This document shows positions 2,389 through 19,409 of a DNA stretch of 64,000 nucleotides, piece by piece. Each line of letters starts with the position of its first letter. Position 1 is the stretch's first letter. Location: NCBI GenBank assembly GCA_903831805.1, contig CAIKZD010000014.1, forward strand, positions 2,078 through 66,077, read 5' to 3'. The notes below the pieces were generated by a model, which ran no database searches, was not told where the DNA came from, and saw only the letters and a list, made by a program, of their open reading frames with translations. A program made the position numbers and the translations under genes. This DNA comes from an uncultured bacterium. Its GTDB lineage: Bacteria; Patescibacteriota; Minisyncoccia; Moranbacterales; UBA2206.

Positions 2389-2661
2389 TTATACTTCAAC
2401 TCCGGTGATTTTCCAATGATTACCCGCCACTTTTTTAATCTCAAATATAGTCTTTTCAAAAGGCGTGTTTTTCGCCACCGTCTCTAGCCCGAACCGCAAA
2501 TTCTCCTCGTTCAGGTCTTCCGTATGTTCAGGGTGGCCGTCATGCGCCAAGGAAATCTGCCCGATTTCAACTTGGACTTTTTTAATATTATCAACTTTCT
2601 GCTCAGCAGAAATTGCCTTTAGTTGATCAATAATTTCTTTGGCTAAGATAAAGTCATGCAT
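2389..2661 (-). CDS. HypA-like hydrogenase nickel-insertion protein, N-terminal domain only (lacks C-terminal CxxC...CxxC zinc site)
   Basis: Starts MHDFILAKEIIDQL (MHE-type N-terminus typical of HypA/HybF). No cysteines occur after the start. It is immediately downstream of dfx and 35 nt upstream of gap. Confidence 0.5.
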   Translation of the reverse strand: MHDFILAKEIIDQLKAISAEQKVDNIKKVQVEIGQISLAHDGHPEHTEDLNEENLRFGLETVAKNTPFEKTIFEIKKVAGNHWKITGVEV

Positions 2662-2665
2662 ATTT

Positions 2666-3040
2666 TTAGTTTTTCCACAGCCCGTGCACGTTGCAATACG
2701 CCCGTGCTTCAGCATGCTCAGCTTCCAGACAAAATTCCGCCATCGGTTCATCTCCCGGTTCTAGCTGCTTTCTATACGTGCGGTGCTCAGTGATAAGCTC
2801 GATCCATTCGATATAATGCTCGGCGGTCATCGGATGCGCGACGCTCCCCACGCGCACAATCATGCCAATGTCGGTTTTTTCGATGGTTGGCTGATGCTTT
2901 TCCGTCCCTTCCTCTTCACTCTTTGCTTGCACGAGTTCCATCGGTTGTCCACAACACACCATTTCTCCCGTGCCACTGTGGACCAATTCAGTCATATTCC
3001 CGCACACGTTGCACTTGTACACTTGATTTAATTCTGCCAT
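2666..3040 (-). CDS. dfx: desulfoferrodoxin (superoxide reductase, 2-domain Dfx)
   Basis: Desulforedoxin-like N-terminus CNVCGN...CCGQPM plus neelaredoxin-type HPMTAEHYIEW...CNVHGLW centre II. Confidence 0.85.
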   Translation of the reverse strand: MAELNQVYKCNVCGNMTELVHSGTGEMVCCGQPMELVQAKSEEEGTEKHQPTIEKTDIGMIVRVGSVAHPMTAEHYIEWIELITEHRTYRKQLEPGDEPMAEFCLEAEHAEARAYCNVHGLWKN

Positions 3041-4328: not shown

Positions 4329-4346
4329 ATTTCCATTATACTTTAG

Positions 4347-5300
4347 TTAATTTAATTTACAAATATTTTTAAGGGCAGCGGTATCTTCCGCTGTCAACGT
4401 GGGAGTGTTAATATCTTGATCACCGATCAGATAATACATGATTGATTTGGAATTTTCCACGTGCGGCAGACCGAGATAGTGGCCCAATTCATGGATCAAA
4501 GTCAGGCGCAAATCTGACGCCGCCTTGAATTGATAAACATTGATTTCTTTTCCGTCAAAAACGCCTTTTTCAAATTCCTGCATGTCGCCGTATTGGCTTT
4601 TATAAGTCGCCACGGTGCTATTATAGTTCGCGACCATTTGATTCTCTTTTTTGGCCAAACTGTTAGTTTGATTGACCAGTGCATTGATGGCAGCGCCTTC
4701 TTGCTGGATTTTATTAAATCGATCATTTAGATCGTTCTTGGTTTTTTTCAATTTACTATATTCATCTGCCGGCGCACCACCTTGGCCATTCCAATAGCTG
4801 ACTTCGGCGTTATATTTGTCCAGCTTATTTTTGTAATCCACCACGTCGTTATTATAATTATCAATCTTTTTCTTATAATCTACGCTCAGCGAATTATATT
4901 GTTGCGTCAACACCTTATCGGTCGCTTCCAGACTTTGCAAATTTTGCTCTAACTCCGCCGCCGCCACAGATTGTTCTTGCCGATTGTCAAAAACTAAATT
5001 TATCTTGAACGCCGCCGCTGGATCATATTGCAGTAGCACCTTCCCTTCACCCTTATTCCAAACCTCCGCCGCCTGGGTAGCTAGTTTTTCTAAATCATCC
5101 TGGGAAATGCCAAATTTTGGATCGATATTGCCAATGGCATATGTCAATGGCTTAGAACACGGTTGATCCAGGCCCAATTCCTTTTGCACCGCCATTTTCA
5201 CCTCTCGCACCACTTCCTGTGTTTGAGTTTTGTTGGTCAGCACTATCCCCCAAAAAGAAAAGAGGGCGATGAGCAAGAGATATTTAAAAAAATTCTTCAT
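4347..5300 (-). CDS. membrane-anchored zinc metalloprotease (metzincin/matrixin-like HExxHxxGxxH) with central coiled-coil
   Basis: N-terminal TM helix LLLIALFSFWGIVL, HELGHYLGLPH zinc motif followed by a Met-turn-like SIMYY, and a long Q/N/K-rich coiled-coil in the middle. It lies between the hydrogenase small and large subunit genes with 18-29 nt gaps. Confidence 0.7.
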   Translation of the reverse strand: MKNFFKYLLLIALFSFWGIVLTNKTQTQEVVREVKMAVQKELGLDQPCSKPLTYAIGNIDPKFGISQDDLEKLATQAAEVWNKGEGKVLLQYDPAAAFKINLVFDNRQEQSVAAAELEQNLQSLEATDKVLTQQYNSLSVDYKKKIDNYNNDVVDYKNKLDKYNAEVSYWNGQGGAPADEYSKLKKTKNDLNDRFNKIQQEGAAINALVNQTNSLAKKENQMVANYNSTVATYKSQYGDMQEFEKGVFDGKEINVYQFKAASDLRLTLIHELGHYLGLPHVENSKSIMYYLIGDQDINTPTLTAEDTAALKNICKLN

Positions 5301-6261: not shown

Positions 6262-7560
6262 ATGCGGACCCTTAACTTTCCTAACCATAATAAAAGAACT
6301 ATTTTAGCCCTCGGCGCCGAATCCGCCGGCAATTTTTCCATATATAAAAATGGAAAAATATATTTTTCCGCAGACTTCGGAGACTTATTAGAAGAGAATA
6401 ATTTTATTGCTTTCAAAAAAGCCGTTTTGGTTTTTTTAAAAAAAGAGAAAATTACCCCGGATATTATCCTCACTGATTTGCATCCCCTCATGAAAACAAC
6501 TTTGTGGGGTGAAGAATTGGCCCAAAAATACTCCGCCAAAGGCGGATCCGCCTCTGGCGGAAAGGCTGAACATATCCAGGTCCAACACCACCACGCCCAT
6601 ATTTTTTCTGCCATCGGAGATTATCTTTCCCCCTCCTCTGTACCCAGGGGAGGGCTGGGGAGGGGTTCTGGAAATTTACCCAACACTTTATTTACCATCG
6701 CCATGGACGGCACGGGCTACGGCGAAGATGAAAAAATTTGGGGCGGAGAAATTTTCAAAGTCACCTCAAAACCCTCTCCCCTTGTACTCAGGGGGAGATG
6801 TCCGGTACTCCGGACAGAGGGGGTTCGTGTTGAACGCATCGGCCACCTAGAAAACCAAACAATGATTGGCGGAGAACTGGCTATCCGCGAGCCAGCTCGC
6901 ATACTGATTGCCATTTTATCCAAATTCCTATCCAAAAAAGAAGTTTTTAATTTTGTCAAAAAATATTATTCAAAAAATGAATTTGAATTACTGCACAGTC
7001 AACTTGGGCAAAATTTCAACTGCCTGGAAACATCCAGCACCGGAAGGATTTTAGATGCTATATCTTTACTATTAGGTTTTTGTGGCAATGTTAGAAAGTA
7101 CAAGCACGAACCAATCGACCTTTTGGAAAAAAATTCCACCGAGCCATACATCTTTAAACCAATTATAGAAAATAACATCTTGCAAACTACGCCACTTTTT
7201 GCATATCTAATAAAAAATATCCACCAAAACAAAAAACGCCTCGCCGCCACGGCGCAATTATATATCGCAAAGGGTTTACATGAAATAATTCAATCATATT
7301 GTCATCCTGAGCGGAGTCTGTACTCGGACGCAGTCGAAGGATCTGCCAATGAACACTACCAGCAATGCCACAAAGCAGATTCTTCGACTTCGCTCCGCTC
7401 CGCTCAGAATGACAGCATCTTCTTTTCCGGCGGCCTCGCCAGCAATAAAATAATTTCAGTTTACTTAGAATCCCAAGGCGCCTACGCTTCAAAAATAGTC
7501 CCGCGCGGAGACAATGGGTTAAGCTTTGGACAAATAGTCTATTACTTATTGAAAAAATAA
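6262..7560 (+). CDS. hypF: HypF-like carbamoyltransferase, Kae1/YrdC-type C-terminal domain only (no acylphosphatase or Zn-finger domains); carries 3 in-frame palindromic insertions
   Basis: ILALGAESAGNFSI, IQVQHHHAHI, AMDGTGYGEDEKIWGGE, GGELAIREPARI and a C-terminal GGLASNK...PRGDNGLSFGQ all match the HypF C-terminal domain. Length 432 aa versus about 750 for full HypF. Confidence 0.75.
   Translation: MRTLNFPNHNKRTILALGAESAGNFSIYKNGKIYFSADFGDLLEENNFIAFKKAVLVFLKKEKITPDIILTDLHPLMKTTLWGEELAQKYSAKGGSASGGKAEHIQVQHHHAHIFSAIGDYLSPSSVPRGGLGRGSGNLPNTLFTIAMDGTGYGEDEKIWGGEIFKVTSKPSPLVLRGRCPVLRTEGVRVERIGHLENQTMIGGELAIREPARILIAILSKFLSKKEVFNFVKKYYSKNEFELLHSQLGQNFNCLETSSTGRILDAISLLLGFCGNVRKYKHEPIDLLEKNSTEPYIFKPIIENNILQTTPLFAYLIKNIHQNKKRLAATAQLYIAKGLHEIIQSYCHPERSLYSDAVEGSANEHYQQCHKADSSTSLRSAQNDSIFFSGGLASNKIISVYLESQGAYASKIVPRGDNGLSFGQIVYYLLKK
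6630..6690. repeat. GC-rich palindromic insertion inside hypF reading frame (encodes SPSSVPRGGLGRGSG)
   Basis: cccctcctctgtacccaggggagggctggggagggg forms cccctcc/ggagggg arms. It interrupts the conserved HypF block between AIGDY and TLFTIAMDGTGYG. Confidence 0.6.
6770..6835. repeat. Second palindromic insertion in hypF, related to the 6630 copy, with a nested tgtccggtactccggaca hairpin
   Basis: aaccctctccccttgtactcagggggag...gagggggtt. It shares a ccctcYcc..tgtacYcaggggRag core with the 6630 element and encodes KPSPLVLRGRCPVLRTEGVRV between conserved GGEIFKV and ERIGHL. Confidence 0.6.
7300..7415. repeat. About 116-bp palindromic element (TGTCATCCTGAGCG...CGCTCAGAATGACA termini) inserted in-frame in hypF
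   Basis: Left arm tgtcatcctgagcggagtctgtactcggacgcagtcgaaggatctg, right arm cagattcttcgacttcgctccgctccgctcagaatgacag. It is homologous to the intergenic element at 19270-19409 and encodes CHPERSLYSDAVEGSANEHYQQCHKADSSTSLRSAQNDS. Confidence 0.75.
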
Positions 7561-7561
7561 T

Positions 7562-7610
7562 TGTCATTCCTGCCCCCGCCTAAGCGAGGATAAACTCCGG
7601 CAGGAATCCA
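7562..7610. repeat. Small palindromic element (GTCATTCCTGCC...GGCAGGAAT) immediately after hypF stop
   Basis: cattcctgcc / ggcaggaatc 10-bp arms. Same terminus family as 38458-38512 and 40950-40978. Confidence 0.6.
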
Positions 7611-7649
7611 GTCTCCTATCTTAGAAATTTAATATTTTTCAAAATTAAA

Positions 7650-7679
7650 GGGCCTTGTGTGGAATACAACACAAGACCC
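7650..7679 (-). terminator. Rho-independent terminator for minus-strand gene 7728-8171
   Basis: gggccttgtgt ggaataca acacaagaccc hairpin; on the minus strand it is followed by tttaatttt. Confidence 0.5.
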
Positions 7680-7727
7680 TCTTATACACAGCTGCAATAA
7701 TCACCAAACATGATGATTATCTTCTTC

Positions 7728-8171
7728 CTACTCATCAGGCTTAACTTTCATCTCGCCGATCCGCAAAATAGCAATGCGTTCGCCTGGCGCCTGACGATCA
7801 TATTCTGGGCCTAATTTTGGCGGATTAAGATTAACCGAGGTTTCATATCCTGAAACCATGCCAATGACAATCTGGATTATCCATAAAATCTGGTCTATGC
7901 CCTCAGCTTCCGCCAAGCAATCAGATAGCATAAAAAGACAACCTCGCTCTTTCTCTGATTTACCTATTCCTACCCACAAACCACGTCCATCTCTAACAGG
8001 AATTATTGATGGCCCGGTTTTTTTCCCGTCAGTACGAGTACCCTGAAAAATCCAGAGTTCATCTCCTGGCTTGCCCTTTCCAAAGATGTAGCTAATTTTT
8101 GAATCTTTTTTATCAATTTTCGTCCCAATTACTATACCAGGACAAGTCAACTCATGCTTCTTATCTCCCAT
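7728..8171 (-). CDS. hypothetical protein in hyp cluster
   Basis: ORF MGDKKHELTCPGIVIGTKIDKK... with no recognisable motif. It has its own terminator and sits between hypE and divergent hypF. Confidence 0.45.
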   Translation of the reverse strand: MGDKKHELTCPGIVIGTKIDKKDSKISYIFGKGKPGDELWIFQGTRTDGKKTGPSIIPVRDGRGLWVGIGKSEKERGCLFMLSDCLAEAEGIDQILWIIQIVIGMVSGYETSVNLNPPKLGPEYDRQAPGERIAILRIGEMKVKPDE

Positions 8172-8286
8172 AACATCCCTCCTTATCACTTATATATTTT
8201 ATGGTTTTGGAAATAAGCTCCCGTAAGAACACGACGAATTGTAAAACAGCTGCAACTATATATACTATATTAAAATAACATTTTTG

Positions 8287-9306
8287 TCAACAAATCCTCG
8301 GCACCAACTTCCCCCGTGGCACTTCTATGCGGCGCAGTCCGCCGAGTTCAGTTTTAACAAAAACCCCATTGCCGCGAAAAGTCTGGCCGATAACCCTCGC
8401 TTCAGGATTAAATTTTTGCAAAATGCTTAAAACTTTTTTGACATTTTTCGGCGCCACCGAAGCGATAAACCGCCCTTCAGACGCCAAAGAAAAAATATCA
8501 AGTCCCAAAAGTTCTGTCACAGCCACTGTTTCTTTCTTATACGGCAAAGTTTTTTCGTCCAACACCACTTTAACGCACGACTTCTCCGCCATCTCATTCA
8601 AGTTAGCGGACAGTCCGCCGCGCGTCGGGTCTTTACAAGCGTTGAGATATTTTCCCACTTTTTCAATTTCGCGGTGAAGCGGCGTGCAATCGCTTTGAAT
8701 TTTAGTTTTGTAATTAAAGCGCTTAGCCAAAAGTGTCACTGTGTGTTCACCCAAATCGCCGGAAGAAATGACATAGTCACCCGTTTGCATACCGCCATTC
8801 GAAATGATATTTTGCGCGAGACCCACGCCACTGGTAGTGATTTCAATCTTATCTATTTTACCTTTCTCCGTCACTTTCGTGTCGCCTGTCACAATCGGCA
8901 CGCCAGTTTCGCGGGAAACTTGGCCAATGGACGCCATGATTTTTTTCAAATCATTCATCGGAAATCCCTCTTCCAAAACAATACTAAGGCCAATTCCAAT
9001 CGGCCGTGCGCCCATCATCGCCAGATCATTGATCGTCCCACACATCGCAATCTTCCCAATATTCCCGCCCGGAAAGAAAATCGGATCCACAATAAAGGCA
9101 TCGGTCGTGAAGACCAAATTGCCTGCATCCGTAGAGACGCGATTAATCGCGTCTCTACCCAAGCTAAACACCGCCCCATCATCCCCCGTATTTTTCCACT
9201 TCGATTTCACGGTGAAATTCTTCCTGATTTCTGCAATGATTTCGGCCGATTTCTTCCCTCCACCACCGTGCTCGAGAGTCACCTTGTCAGATTGTTTTGT
9301 TGCCAT
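8287..9306 (-). CDS. hypE: hydrogenase maturation carbamoyl dehydratase HypE
   Basis: PurM-like fold signatures and the characteristic C-terminal PRIC. Confidence 0.88.
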   Translation of the reverse strand: MATKQSDKVTLEHGGGGKKSAEIIAEIRKNFTVKSKWKNTGDDGAVFSLGRDAINRVSTDAGNLVFTTDAFIVDPIFFPGGNIGKIAMCGTINDLAMMGARPIGIGLSIVLEEGFPMNDLKKIMASIGQVSRETGVPIVTGDTKVTEKGKIDKIEITTSGVGLAQNIISNGGMQTGDYVISSGDLGEHTVTLLAKRFNYKTKIQSDCTPLHREIEKVGKYLNACKDPTRGGLSANLNEMAEKSCVKVVLDEKTLPYKKETVAVTELLGLDIFSLASEGRFIASVAPKNVKKVLSILQKFNPEARVIGQTFRGNGVFVKTELGGLRRIEVPRGKLVPRIC

Positions 9307-9386
9307 AATGTTTTAAACATTTTTACTTATAGATTTCGGATTTTATTTGAAATTTTTAATTTAATATTTGAAATTTAAAAAGTATA

Positions 9387-10427
9387 TCATTTTAAATATC
9401 TATACCCCACATTACACGCCCCTTCCACCGAAACCATGCACGGCCCGACGGGATTGTCTGGGGTGCAGATTTTGCCAAAGAGCGGACATCTTTTGGATTC
9501 CATCAGACCACGGATGACTTCCCCGCAGCGACAACCGTCTGGATCTTTGGAATGCGAGAAATCTACTTTATCTAAAATATCTTTGTATTTAATTTTAGCA
9601 TCAAACTGCTTATATTTATTTCTGATTTTTAAACCCGATTTCGGAATGATACCAAATCCCCGCCAATCTCCGTCACCAACTTCGAAAACTTCGGCAATTA
9701 TTTTTCGGATTTTTTCATTCCCCGCATCTTTTACCACGCGAGAATATTGGTTGAGCACCTGCGTATCTTTATTTTTTATTTGATTGAGTAGTAATAATAT
9801 TCCCGCCAAAACATCTTCCATTTCAAAGCCAGTGATGACTTGGGGAATTTTCAATTTCGCGTATGGCGCCGTGCCGAGTACCACACTGACGTGTCCCGGG
9901 TCGATAAAACCATCAATCTTAATTTCCCCCATCGCCAGCAGTGCTTCCATGGCCGGCAAAAATATTTTATGCGCTGAATAGACTGTTAGGCCCTGCTGAA
10001 TCCCCCAAGCTGTCATCGGTGTAGTGGTTTCAAAACCCAACCCGAAAAAAACTAACTCCGGAATTTTCTTAGCAAGCTCAACCGCGTCCGTCACTGAATA
10101 GACGTCATATACTTTGGCGCCCTGTTCACGTGCGCCGTCCAAACTGCCGAAATATCCCGGGACGCGAAGCGCATCACCATAAGTCACTACCGGCACGCTA
10201 GCCAACGCCAAATTCACAATCGCATCAATGTCACGCTGCGCCGTCACACACACAGGACAGCCCGGCCCGGTAATGAGTTTTATATTTTTGGGCAAAATCT
10301 CCCGAATCCCAAACCGACTAATCACCTGCGTATGCGTCCCACACACTTCCATCAAATTCACAGGCCGGCCGATTTCTGCCGCCAGTTTTTCTATTTTTCG
10401 AATAAAATTATCCGTCATATCGGCCAA
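9387..10427 (-). CDS. hypD: hydrogenase maturation factor HypD
   Basis: MEVCGTHT, GPGCPVCV and CPLFGKICTPDNPVGPCMVSVEGAC motifs. Confidence 0.88.
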   Translation of the reverse strand: MADMTDNFIRKIEKLAAEIGRPVNLMEVCGTHTQVISRFGIREILPKNIKLITGPGCPVCVTAQRDIDAIVNLALASVPVVTYGDALRVPGYFGSLDGAREQGAKVYDVYSVTDAVELAKKIPELVFFGLGFETTTPMTAWGIQQGLTVYSAHKIFLPAMEALLAMGEIKIDGFIDPGHVSVVLGTAPYAKLKIPQVITGFEMEDVLAGILLLLNQIKNKDTQVLNQYSRVVKDAGNEKIRKIIAEVFEVGDGDWRGFGIIPKSGLKIRNKYKQFDAKIKYKDILDKVDFSHSKDPDGCRCGEVIRGLMESKRCPLFGKICTPDNPVGPCMVSVEGACNVGYRYLK

Positions 10428-10852: not shown

Positions 10853-12298
10853 TTAAATTTCCGCTGATTGCCCTCCTCCGCGTTCGCATCCCCTCGGACA
10901 CACCATCACTTCCAGAAAGTCATAATGTTTTTCTCTTTTTAATTCAGCTGATAAGGCGTTCTTGATTTCGAGCACGCCGTTGGCCGCACCGATGGAAAAA
11001 TCACCCTTGATTTTTTTGGCCGTCATGGCGGAGAGGTTGCCATATCCATACGTCGTAGCATACTCGGCGTCCGTCTCATCCAAAAACTTATCCGCCGCGG
11101 AGCCTTTGAAACGGATGTTTTCTGTTTTCTTCTCCCGCGCGATGCGGCCCAGCTCCCGCACCGTGACGATATGATCAATCGCATTACTCTTGAGTTTTTT
11201 TCTGGCGGCGCAAGATGAGATAAGTATCACTCGGATGTTTTTCGGATCGATTTTTTCTCGCTTGGCATATTCCCATTTGACCGCTTCCGCCATCAATTCT
11301 TCCGGCCGTTTTACGTCGATAATATTTTTTATTAATTCCGGAAAATATTTTTGGATATACAGCGCCGCGCTCGGGCAAAAACTGGAGATAAATTTTCGCT
11401 GGCGCACCGGCGTTTTTTTTCTGGCGTGATGCGGATGGATCTCTTCCGCCACAGCTTCGACATATTTCTGGAATCCCCAACTCAGATCGAAAACTTTTTC
11501 GCATCCCAGTGCCCGCAGATTCCCGGCCAAATTTTCCATGTTCTTCACCTCAAGAAGTTCCTGCATCGCGCTTTTCAGGACCACCGGGTCCACGATGGCC
11601 ACTGAAAGAATGTTGGTGTCATCTAAGTCGGTGATGACTTTTTGGATATCGCCCTGGTCGGCCAGCGCGCCGGTCGGGCAATGCGTCACGCAGGCTCCGC
11701 AAAAAATACAATCCAGTGGCTGGTTGTATGGCGTCCCAACCACCACATCTCCTGAGCGATGATTGAAACCATACGAACTGACGGGACAAATGTTGATGCA
11801 ACGCCGACATTCTACGCAATATTGCGAATCACGCTCAATGACCGGATTTTCTCTGTCCACCACCACGCGAGACCAGTTATCCAGCAAAAGTTCATTTTCC
11901 TCGCCACTAGTCATCTCACCTTTTCTTGGCACAAAATGAAAATTCTCTATCTTATATTCTTCCGCCAAAGTTTGCAATTCACAGCGACGGTTTTTTTTGC
12001 ACTGAAAACACTTGCCGGCATGATCCGCCCAAAGCAGTTCCAAATTGATGGCCCGCGCTTTCTGGATGTTTTCATTTTCCGTTTCCACTTTCATCCCATC
12101 AACGGCTTTGGTCGCACAAGAAGTCACCAACCGGCCAGATTTATCAATTTCTACCAAACACAACCGACAAACTGCTTCGCGTTTAAGTTTTCCATGCGAA
12201 CAAAGAGTCGGAATGCGGATCCCCTCGCGCCGACAGACATCCAAGACAGTGTCTTTTTCTTTGGCGCTATATTTTTTTCCATTTATTTTTATTTGCAT
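10853..12298 (-). CDS. [FeFe]-hydrogenase-like catalytic subunit (HydA-like, M3 architecture) with atypical H-cluster motifs
   Basis: NuoG-like N-terminus (2Fe-2S CRLCLVEI; CVECRRCINICP; CIFCGACVTHCP). H-domain motifs are L1 SSFCPSA (canonical TSCCPGW), L2 SSCAARKK (MPCxxKKxE), L3 EVMVCPRGCERGGGQS (ExMACxxGCxxGGGQ). Start taken at MQIKINGKKY (12298), overlapping the nuoF-like stop. Confidence 0.75.
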   Translation of the reverse strand: MQIKINGKKYSAKEKDTVLDVCRREGIRIPTLCSHGKLKREAVCRLCLVEIDKSGRLVTSCATKAVDGMKVETENENIQKARAINLELLWADHAGKCFQCKKNRRCELQTLAEEYKIENFHFVPRKGEMTSGEENELLLDNWSRVVVDRENPVIERDSQYCVECRRCINICPVSSYGFNHRSGDVVVGTPYNQPLDCIFCGACVTHCPTGALADQGDIQKVITDLDDTNILSVAIVDPVVLKSAMQELLEVKNMENLAGNLRALGCEKVFDLSWGFQKYVEAVAEEIHPHHARKKTPVRQRKFISSFCPSAALYIQKYFPELIKNIIDVKRPEELMAEAVKWEYAKREKIDPKNIRVILISSCAARKKLKSNAIDHIVTVRELGRIAREKKTENIRFKGSAADKFLDETDAEYATTYGYGNLSAMTAKKIKGDFSIGAANGVLEIKNALSAELKREKHYDFLEVMVCPRGCERGGGQSAEI

Positions 12299-13536
12299 AA
12301 TATTTTTAATTTTTCCACGGCATCCCCCATCGCCGTCGCCGCAAATCTGCCCAGCGGACAAAAAGTTGTATTTTCCAAAGTCCATAAAATGTCTTTGAGT
12401 GCTTCCCGATCCCGCTCGGAAATTTCTCCGTCCTGCCATCTGCTCACAATTTCATGCAGCCGAAAAGTGCCTTCGCGGCACGGCACGCATTTGCCACACG
12501 ACTCGCGACGGAAAAATTCCGTCCAAGACAAGATTAAATCATAGATATTGGCACTTTTGTCGACAACCAAAATAGATCCTGAGCCGAGGGGAATCGGACA
12601 GTCACGAGAAAATGTGAGCGGCGTATCCAATTCCTTCTCGGTGACAAGATGTCCGGACGCTCCCCCAATTTGCGCAAACCAAAATTCTTTACCCAATGTC
12701 ACGCCGCCGCCGATTTCATCAATCAACTCACGGATGGTTAGGCCAGTCGGCGCTTCCACTACGCCCGGTTTTTTCACACTTCCACCCAAGATGTACAATT
12801 TCATCCCCGGCGAACAGGTGGCCCCGAGCTTGGCATATTTTTTCCCAGAGTTTAAGATTATCCACGGAATATTGGCGATTGTCTCGGCGTTGTTCACGCA
12901 TGTCGGTTTGCCGAAAAGCCCGGTTTCCGTCGGATAGGGCGGTCTAAGTCGCGGTTCGCCGCGACGCCCTTCGATAGAATTAAGGAGGGCCGTTTCTTCA
13001 CCGCAGATATACGCCCCGGCTCCAGAAAAAATTTCAATATCCAAATCATAACTCGAACCCATGATCCCCGGTCCCCAAAAATTTTTCTTCCGCGCTGCTT
13101 CCAATGCCGTTTCTAGAATTTCTTTTTGCTTATGATAATTCCCATTGAGATAGAGATAGGCTTTATGCGCCCCGACGGCTAGTGCGGCAATAATGACCCC
13201 TTCCAAAAGCAAATGCGGATCATTATCCACAATCATGCGGTCCTTATATGTGCCCGGCTCCGATTCTTCCAAATTGCAAATGAAATATTTCTCATGGCTT
13301 GCATTCTCAGCCACTATTTTTAATTTTTCCCCGGTCAAAAATCCCGCCCCACCCCGCCCGGACAACTTGGATTTCACAATTTCAGCAATGGCTGTTTGTG
13401 GCTTCATCTCTGAGACAAACTTTTTGAGCGCGCCGTAACCGCCTACATTTATATAATCAGCAATCTTGAGAGGATTAATATGCCCCCAGTTTTTGGTCAG
13501 TATTTTTTCTGTCTTAGCCATATTTATTAAATCCAA
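12289..13536 (-). CDS. NADH-binding NuoF/HoxF/HydB-like flavoprotein subunit
   Basis: GRGGAGFLTG FMN/NAD site, C-terminal ESCGKCVPCREG 4Fe-4S motif. Length 415 aa. Confidence 0.85.
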   Translation of the reverse strand: MDLINMAKTEKILTKNWGHINPLKIADYINVGGYGALKKFVSEMKPQTAIAEIVKSKLSGRGGAGFLTGEKLKIVAENASHEKYFICNLEESEPGTYKDRMIVDNDPHLLLEGVIIAALAVGAHKAYLYLNGNYHKQKEILETALEAARKKNFWGPGIMGSSYDLDIEIFSGAGAYICGEETALLNSIEGRRGEPRLRPPYPTETGLFGKPTCVNNAETIANIPWIILNSGKKYAKLGATCSPGMKLYILGGSVKKPGVVEAPTGLTIRELIDEIGGGVTLGKEFWFAQIGGASGHLVTEKELDTPLTFSRDCPIPLGSGSILVVDKSANIYDLILSWTEFFRRESCGKCVPCREGTFRLHEIVSRWQDGEISERDREALKDILWTLENTTFCPLGRFAATAMGDAVEKLKILCK

Positions 13537-19269: not shown

Positions 19270-19409
19270 CTGTCATCCTGAGCGAAGTCCGCACTCGGAC
19301 GCAGTCGAAGGATCTGTTCTGTGTTACCACTAGATCTATAAACATAACAGCGCCAGTGGCAACCTAAGGCAGATTCTTCGACTTCGCTGCGCTACGCTCA
19401 GAATGACAA
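19270..19409. repeat. About 140-bp palindromic element, intergenic copy of the family inserted in hypF (7300-7415)
   Basis: tgtcatcctgagcgaagtccgcactcggacgcagtcgaaggatctg...cagattcttcgacttcgctgcgctacgctcagaatgacaa matches the hypF copy arm-for-arm with a different central loop. Confidence 0.75.

Follow-up and report, generated by a model that had tools for sequence, protein, structure and literature searches.

A matrixin-like protease gene with an internal helical hairpin lies between the [NiFe]-hydrogenase subunit genes of a Moranbacterales genome and is probably an operon passenger

The small and large subunit genes of a [NiFe]-hydrogenase, hydS and hydL, are separated by a gene for a putative zinc protease in an uncultured member of the Patescibacteriota (Moranbacterales; UBA2206). 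The three genes lie on contig CAIKZD010000014.1 of assembly GCA_903831805.1, within a stretch of 64,000 nucleotides (positions 2,078 to 66,077 of the forward strand) that was analysed as a whole and is called the window here. On the minus strand the order is hydS, protease gene, hydL, with spacers of 29 nucleotides (nt) on the hydS side and 18 nt on the hydL side (Table 1). These coordinates bear out an earlier reading made from the letters of the window (the sequence-only reading), which had placed an open reading frame (ORF) of 317 amino acids (aa) between the subunit genes with exactly these spacers. That reading considered a novel hydrogenase-associated factor, serving in membrane tethering or assembly of the enzyme, and kept an unrelated insertion as its fallback. 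Here, we characterize the protease, its wider family and the same junction in related operons, and weigh the two explanations along with others.

The ORF is, on its homology, a real gene, because full-length homologues range from 100% down to 35% identity and at least 1384 clusters (50% identity) match the family profile at E<=1e-30. The best 150 of these matches are nearly all about 300 aa long and are matched end-to-end. The protein passes the Pfam family Peptidase_M10 (PF00413) with 46.4 bits against a gathering cut-off of 24 (E=5.2e-12), and residues 50-313 align to profile positions 5-157 of 159, so that the M10 domain is split by an insert. All elements of the membrane-anchored metzincin that the sequence-only reading had recognised are in place: a single N-terminal hydrophobic segment, the zinc motif HELGHYLGLPH and a Met-turn, joined now by the M10 match. 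H270, E271, H274 and H280 are invariant in 102/102 family members, and the position of Met288, which aligns to the Met-turn of matrix metalloproteinases (MMPs) 16 and 7, is Met in 101/102. Conservation of this kind, persisting down to about 25% identity, is the mark of a functional active site. Directly after the third zinc His, this family has Val, Thr or Leu, where MMPs have Ser.

An AlphaFold2 (AF2) model built from a 70-sequence alignment reaches a mean predicted local distance difference test score (pLDDT) of 88.9, and the structure prediction that had been suggested as a check thus returned an MMP catalytic fold. The N-terminal part comprises helix 2-23, short helix 25-42, strand 52-59, helix 67-85 and strands 90-92 and 99-102; the rest comprises helices 106-172 and 178-237, strands 246-248 and 252-255, the active-site helix 261-275 and a C-terminal helix 304-314. 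In this predicted structure, the order of strands and helices agrees with the five-stranded sheet and three helices of the MMP catalytic domain. The top 40 Foldseek matches in the PDB are MMP catalytic domains (TM-score 0.57-0.68, normalised to the target) led by MMP-12, -7, -13, -3 and -8. Likewise, the family profile finds MMP-16 (5e-10), MMP-7 and MMP-12 among PDB sequences, over residues 258-310. By profile, motif and modelled fold, the protease is a member of the matrixin superfamily. Matrixins (MEROPS M10A) include bacterial members such as karilysin of Tannerella forsythia, and the shared traits here are the HExxHxxGxxH motif, the Met placed eight residues beyond the third His, the strand-helix order and helix C; the best structural and PDB-sequence matches among MMPs are MMP-12, -7, -13 and -16.

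The protein departs from MMPs in the middle and at both ends. The Q/N/K-rich coiled-coil insertion that had been put at about 140 aa is modelled as an antiparallel two-helix hairpin of about 132 aa with a conserved GGAP turn. It sits at the position of the MMP S-loop, linking strands 3 and 4, and would be rigid and roughly 90 Angstrom long. Across the 102 family members the insert is 103-166 aa long. On its first helix, conserved aromatic residues recur at exact heptad intervals as a ladder (Y135, Y142, Y149, Y156, Y163, W170), accompanied by conserved YN pairs, and conservation analysis places this ladder opposite Leu and Asn positions that are likewise conserved in the return helix. The S-loop of MMPs holds structural zinc (three His, one Asp) and calcium sites; in the protease the hairpin stands there instead, and the structural zinc site cannot exist because the only three His in the sequence are all catalytic. 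MMPs also have a propeptide with a PRCGxPD cysteine switch, whereas the protease has neither, with only about 25 residues between the membrane helix and the catalytic domain. The Cys of PCSKP (Cys48) was considered as a vestigial switch and rejected, given its covariation with Cys314 and its place 4 residues ahead of strand 1. A hemopexin domain is lacking. Finally, membrane-type MMPs are held by a C-terminal transmembrane or glycosylphosphatidylinositol anchor, whereas the anchor here is an N-terminal helix.

Several lines of evidence bear on where the catalytic domain resides. Cys48 immediately precedes strand 1 and Cys314 closes helix C; in MMPs, helix C is where the N-terminal segment packs. 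Among 102 sequences the two Cys are both present in 87, both absent in 12 and discordant in 3, two of the latter coming from genes near a contig end; 77 of the 102 contain exactly two Cys, and Cys48 is invariant in A1 and A2. Since the two residues covary, they are better explained as a disulfide than as zinc ligands, and a probable Cys48-Cys314 bond would tie the N-terminal segment to helix C, another difference from MMPs. At the position of the anchor, homologues from Acinetobacter bear classical Sec signal peptides, and one Chlorobi-like homologue shows a lipobox. The single N-terminal anchor, the covarying Cys pair and these export signals together indicate that the catalytic domain probably faces outside, which would leave just about 3 residues of the protease in the cytoplasm. 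HydS has no twin-arginine (RRxF) motif, and there is no strongly hydrophobic segment in either HydS or HydL. On these predictions, the protease and the hydrogenase occupy different compartments.

Table 1. Genes of the hydrogenase locus and predicted features of the protease (coordinates in the window)
Feature	Coordinates	Strand	Basis or position
Protease gene, 317 aa; matrixin-like zinc metalloprotease with predicted N-terminal membrane anchor and internal helical hairpin	4347..5300	-	ORF, PF00413, AF2, Foldseek
Sole hydrophobic segment, residues 4-23; putative signal anchor or uncleaved signal peptide	5232..5291	-	Kyte-Doolittle; AF2 helix 2-23
N-terminal catalytic half, residues 48-105 (Cys48, strand 1, helix A, strands 2-3)	4986..5159	-	AF2; Pfam start at residue 50
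Antiparallel helical hairpin, ~132 aa (helices 106-172 and 178-237; GGAP turn)	4590..4985	-	AF2, pLDDT 85-98 here
C-terminal catalytic half (strands 4-5, active-site helix, Met-turn, helix C to Cys314)	4350..4589	-	AF2; PDB profile matches
Zinc motif HELGHYLGLPH, residues 270-280 (H270, E271, H274, H280)	4461..4493	-	Sequence; conservation
Met288 of Met-turn SIMYY	4437..4439	-	Eight residues past third zinc His, as in MMPs
Promoter-like TTGTAA-16-TATAAT	4335..4362	-	Consensus scan, 10/12 matches; -10 box ends 6 nt before hydL ATG
hydS, group-3 [NiFe]-hydrogenase small subunit, 280 aa	5330..6172	-	Pfam Oxidored_q6; best NCBIfam ShyD/HydD
hydL, group-3 [NiFe]-hydrogenase large subunit, 419 aa	3069..4328	-	Pfam NiFeSe_Hases; best NCBIfam ShyA/HydA
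Desulfoferrodoxin	2666-3040		Downstream of hydL
hypA	2389-2751		Downstream of hydL
hypF	6262-7560	+	Upstream side of hydS; strand opposite to hyd genes, within the hyp-hyd cluster
NuoG/[FeFe]-hydrogenase-like gene	10853-12439	-	Upstream of hypC; carries Fe_hyd_lg_C domain

Related hydrogenase operons vary widely at the same junction. We collected 80 metagenomic loci with HydL 64-85% identical, 71 of which could be scored at the hydS-hydL junction and 9 of which could not. The protease gene stands alone between the subunit genes in 19 loci and is accompanied by a further gene or a long spacer in 12; hydS and hydL are adjacent, with a gap of 120 nt or less, in 24; and other, unrelated inserts occupy the junction in 16. 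The sequence-only reading had asked whether the protease always lies between the two subunit genes in relatives. It does so in 31/71 scorable operons, and the remaining 40 do without a protease gene at this site, so the gene is not present wherever a related operon is. Relatives with protease identities of 74, 72, 67, 61, 53 and 50% have the order hydS-protease-hydL as well. The other inserts include genes for PDDEXK_3 (GxxExxY-type), 23S-rRNA-IVS-type four-helix-bundle (23S_rRNA_IVP), NYN-domain and PaaX/Cas2-like proteins, as well as small membrane proteins and ORFs without assignment; among loci L112-L173, examples are L119, L129, L131, L135, L115 and L137. In L137, more than 6 kb with four tandem paralogues of a secreted protein immediately precedes hydL, and hydS is not in reach. 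Because so many unrelated genes are found there, the hydS-hydL junction of this clade is a recurrent, tolerated insertion site. HydS itself also varies: in L177, where hydS and hydL are adjacent, the small subunit (1788-2996) carries a Lys/Ala-rich N-terminal extension of about 150 aa that resembles histone H1.

The large subunit offers no substrate for a maturation endopeptidase. HydL ends at DPCISCAVH followed directly by the stop codon, as the sequence-only reading had pointed out in arguing that no C-terminal processing is needed, and all 73 complete related HydL stop at this motif (DPCISCAVH in 72, DPCIACAVH in 1), with or without a protease gene upstream. Since these ends are alike regardless of what the junction contains, the extension-less HydL characterises the entire hydrogenase clade and has no connection with the protease. 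The C-terminal extension is naturally missing from many [NiFe]-hydrogenases, which use the Hyp machinery all the same (PMC7294309). The known endopeptidases HycI, HybD and HoxW (MEROPS A31, PF01750) resemble the protease in having a protease gene inside a hydrogenase cluster and in nothing else: fold and catalytic type are unrelated, the extension after DPCxxCxxH that they cleave is absent, and by prediction the protease does not share the cytoplasm with the apo-large subunit. The protease ORF matches metallopeptidase families and not PF01750, in agreement with the earlier statement that it is unrelated to HycI/HybD. Neither a HycI-type protease gene nor hypB was seen among the genes called in about 19 kb of the source contig, and a search of the window for HycI/HybD-like proteases, made with approximate E. 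coli queries, gave only noise (E>=0.45) and serves as a lead.

Conversely, the protease persists where the hydrogenase is missing. L091, whose protease is 53% identical, has no hydS, hydL, desulfoferrodoxin (dfx) or hyp genes, and its protease gene is intact and tightly packed in a block of genes for triosephosphate isomerase (TIM), fructose-bisphosphate (FBP) aldolase, NuoE, NuoF, a truncated NuoG-like protein, the protease, glyceraldehyde-3-phosphate dehydrogenase (GAPDH), a MurL-like amidohydrolase and a MurD-like ligase. The NuoG-like orthologue of this locus (6928-7947) is cut to 339 aa and lacks the Fe_hyd_lg_C domain. Relatives 44-49% identical occur in unrelated contexts in L093, L176 and L175. 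In L175 a 451-aa protein with a PG_binding_1 domain, encoded at 8066-9421, follows the protease gene; a domain of this type forms the propeptide of animal MMPs. Further afield, none of 80 reference-genome loci of family members (25-40% identity) has hydL or hydS within 10 kb. The protease gene is therefore not absent where the hydrogenase is absent, as L091 attests, and in L093, L175, L176 and these 80 genome loci it is unlinked.

The reference-genome loci span many Patescibacteria, which provide most members of the family, along with Acinetobacter, Moraxella, Bacteroidota, Ignavibacteria, Elusimicrobia and others. The only local synteny among their neighbours was seen in Acinetobacter, such as DnaK. 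Hydrogenase and family member may also coexist unlinked: the HydL of L117, in which hydS and hydL are adjacent, is identical to the P0201 HydL, and the contig behind L047 carries a family member 31% identical. Very probably, the L047 family member and the L117 hydS-hydL pair lie on one contig about 50 kb apart, which suggests that the two need not be neighbours. Overall, the protease belongs to a large, uncharacterised, MMP-like family without a propeptide and with a hairpin replacing the S-loop. We found no description of this family, or of the hydS-protease-hydL arrangement, in the literature on hydrogenase and matrixin, on matrixin coiled-coils in Patescibacteria, or on Moranbacteria hydrogenase.

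The history of the insertion was approached with a neighbour-joining tree of 102 family members. All hydrogenase-linked protease copies form one clade and the rest of the family is unlinked; nested in the linked clade are L091 and L093, both unlinked, and L004, whose linkage could not be scored at a contig edge. In the HydL tree, protease-bearing operons are intermingled with operons that lack the gene. Over 21 loci, the pairwise identities of HydL correlate with those of the protease (Pearson r=0.67, Spearman 0.28). The simplest history would be a single old insertion into the hydS-hydL junction in an ancestor of the Moranbacteria-like lineage, followed by vertical inheritance with several later losses, moves or replacements; one lineage would have kept the protease gene even though its hydrogenase disappeared. 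The alternative that L091 preserves the ancestral state was rejected, as its protease is nested inside the hydrogenase-linked clade and as an L091-first scenario would need hydrogenase genes to have been inserted around the protease gene in two separate events. Recent horizontal insertion was likewise rejected, the gene being conserved in place among relatives. Its low GC content (0.40, against 0.45-0.50) is probably explained by the Lys/Asn/Gln-rich hairpin.

Sequence signals bear on the transcription of the locus. Neither spacer contains a terminator-like site on the coding strand, and co-transcription of the protease gene with hydS and hydL is plausible. A promoter-like element is found just before hydL (Table 1), however, so the earlier judgement that the gene is "almost certainly co-transcribed" was too strong. 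Among loci within L084-L174, 9/20 with the protease gene upstream have a TATAAT whose end lies 4-10 nt before the hydL ATG, compared with 5/25 with another insert upstream and 0/20 in which hydS and hydL are adjacent. The difference between interrupted and adjacent operons (14/45 vs 0/20) has a Fisher p=0.003, uncorrected for phylogeny. Interrupted operons may thus possess an internal promoter for hydL that would yield a leaderless or very short-leader mRNA. The protease gene probably rides on operon transcription, and hydL may have gained its own -10 box.

HydS and HydL find the sulfhydrogenase delta and alpha subunits (ShyD/HydD and ShyA/HydA) as their best NCBIfam matches with scores well under the equivalog cut-offs, and the enzyme is, by these profiles, a divergent group-3, 3b-like hydrogenase. 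In addition to the genes in Table 1, a GAPDH gene lies downstream of hydL; hypE, hypD and hypC are further upstream neighbours of hydS; and NuoF- and NuoE-like genes, FBP aldolase and TIM precede the NuoG-like gene on the source contig. Group 3b (sulfhydrogenase-like) operons of the Candidate Phyla Radiation (e.g., PMC10811913) have in common with this locus the ShyD/ShyA and HydD/HydA best matches, nearby hypA, C, D, E and F, and a NuoE/NuoF-type module; the difference is that in the present sub-lineage the hydS-hydL pair is interrupted by the protease gene. In a term search, PMC10811913 did not mention protease, peptidase or maturation. For the protease as for HydL, the closest named homologues come from Moranbacteria, Parcubacteria and other Patescibacteria metagenome-assembled genomes, and the 64-kb window contains no paralogue of the protease.

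Several peculiarities were noted in the hyp genes. The window's hypF encodes Kae1-like C-terminal domains only (HypF_C, HypF_C_2), without the acylphosphatase, zinc-finger and YrdC-like regions that canonical HypF possesses, and its orthologues vary by lineage-specific in-frame insertions. A palindromic element of about 115 nt that resembles a miniature inverted-repeat transposable element (MITE), with termini TGTCATCCTGAGCG...CGCTCAGAATGACA, lies in frame within hypF (7300-7414), and a second, 93% identical copy is found 12 kb away at 19271-19408. A GC-rich hairpin or palindrome at 6531-6562, also within hypF, encodes an extra "GGSASGG". Between hypE and hypF, a 153-aa ORF (7728-8189, minus strand) is called as a gene on the source contig, has no Pfam match and is missing in relatives such as L086 and L092.

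Architecturally, the hairpin recalls a different class of envelope proteins. EnvC, PcsB, CwlO and RipC are FtsEX-controlled, coiled-coil-bearing regulators or enzymes of cell-wall hydrolysis. The likeness, an analogy, consists of a long antiparallel coiled-coil hairpin on a membrane-associated, extracytoplasmic domain of hydrolase type. The two are not homologous, however: the catalytic domains of the FtsEX systems are LytM, CHAP or NlpC/P60 and not metzincin, and their hairpin is N-terminal to the catalytic domain, whereas that of the protease lies within it. No ftsEX or other conserved neighbour of the protease was found across the 80 reference-genome loci. An FtsEX-like architecture is a speculative lead and not a classification.

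From this evidence, we consider it likely that the gene encodes a membrane-anchored, outward-facing and constitutively folded MMP-like zinc endopeptidase that acts on surface, secreted or external proteins or peptides, and that it is a passenger of the hydrogenase operon. The N-terminal helix would hold the protease in the membrane, with the rigid hairpin projecting from the catalytic domain. In an ultra-small monoderm Patescibacteria cell, it would most likely process or turn over surface and secreted proteins, or degrade external peptides. The synteny evidence favours the fallback of the sequence-only reading, an unrelated insertion. The outcome that reading had named as evidence against a hydrogenase factor has largely come about, as relatives lack the gene and orthologues occur in unrelated contexts; yet the insertion appears old and is stably inherited in one sub-lineage. 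Some observations weigh against a mere passenger. The arrangement is kept in about 44% of scorable operons, with protease identity down to about 42%, and the spacers around the gene are short (-4 to 82 nt upstream, 13-133 nt downstream); such a conserved position could reflect selection for co-expression. The 80 metagenomic loci are not independent lineages, and on simple neighbour-joining trees several independent insertions are possible, leaving the number of events uncertain. Clustering of the three genes on each side of the protease gene at the 80 reference-genome loci gave no recurrent neighbour beyond the local Acinetobacter synteny and pointed to no substrate or conserved partner gene, so the physiological role assigned here stays generic.

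Selected co-expression is the central idea of a reading that we regard as unlikely, though the most serious of the alternatives, in which the protease is separate in function from the hydrogenase and its place is kept within a "supra-operon" for fermentative growth made up of glycolysis genes, a NuoEF-like module, hyp genes, hydrogenase and desulfoferrodoxin. On this reading, the cell would turn on external proteolysis or surface remodelling together with fermentation and H2 metabolism. The stability of the hydS-protease-hydL arrangement across a wide clade, the short, terminator-free spacers, the synteny of the block from TIM to the MurD-like gene across these genomes and the retention of the protease gene in that block after hydrogenase loss in L091 all agree with it. 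Yet 40 of the 71 scorable operons have no protease gene at the site, close relatives of the protease lie elsewhere in the genome, and the syntenic block includes the clearly unrelated GAPDH and Mur ligase, so that synteny alone is not evidence of co-regulation. A bolder combination would make the hairpin matrixins an unrecognised class of cell-envelope metalloproteases in which the hairpin positions or gates the active site in the wall or toward a host, with the fixed gene position reflecting co-expression with fermentative H2 metabolism or, at the extreme, a real coupling to the hydrogenase; we regard this as rather improbable. The accessory factor itself, whether tethering the group-3 enzyme to the membrane or assisting the assembly or proteolytic maturation of a subunit, now seems very unlikely and is largely refuted by synteny. 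Its appeal lay in a gene placed exactly between core subunit genes with spacers of 29 and 18 nt, in the persistence of that arrangement in 31 operons and in the lack of a visible HycI-type gene near the cluster, for which the search with E. coli queries is a lead only. HydL has no extension to cleave, however, and equally so in protease-free operons; the subunit genes are adjacent in 24 operons and separated by unrelated inserts in 16; L091 retains the protease after complete loss of the hydrogenase; and by far the larger part of the family has no linkage to hydrogenases. The predicted outward topology, with so few residues in the cytoplasm, and a HydS without a twin-arginine motif fit tethering or maturation poorly. 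Least credible to us is a non-catalytic structural or adhesin-like surface protein in which the coiled-coil hairpin is the functional part. The hairpin is indeed long, confidently modelled and endowed with a strongly conserved aromatic ladder, and the structural metal sites of MMPs are gone, the sole His being the three catalytic ones; the near-perfect conservation of those residues and of the Met-turn, down to about 25% identity, speaks against a loss of catalysis.

For hydrogenase biology, the result is mostly negative, in that the gene between hydS and hydL is very probably not a new maturation or tethering factor. The tolerated insertions at the junction, and the possible -10 box of hydL, bear on how operons evolve in reduced genomes. 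Finally, MMP-like surface proteases with a hairpin could plausibly help ultra-small symbiotic bacteria to scavenge nutrients or to make contact with a host.

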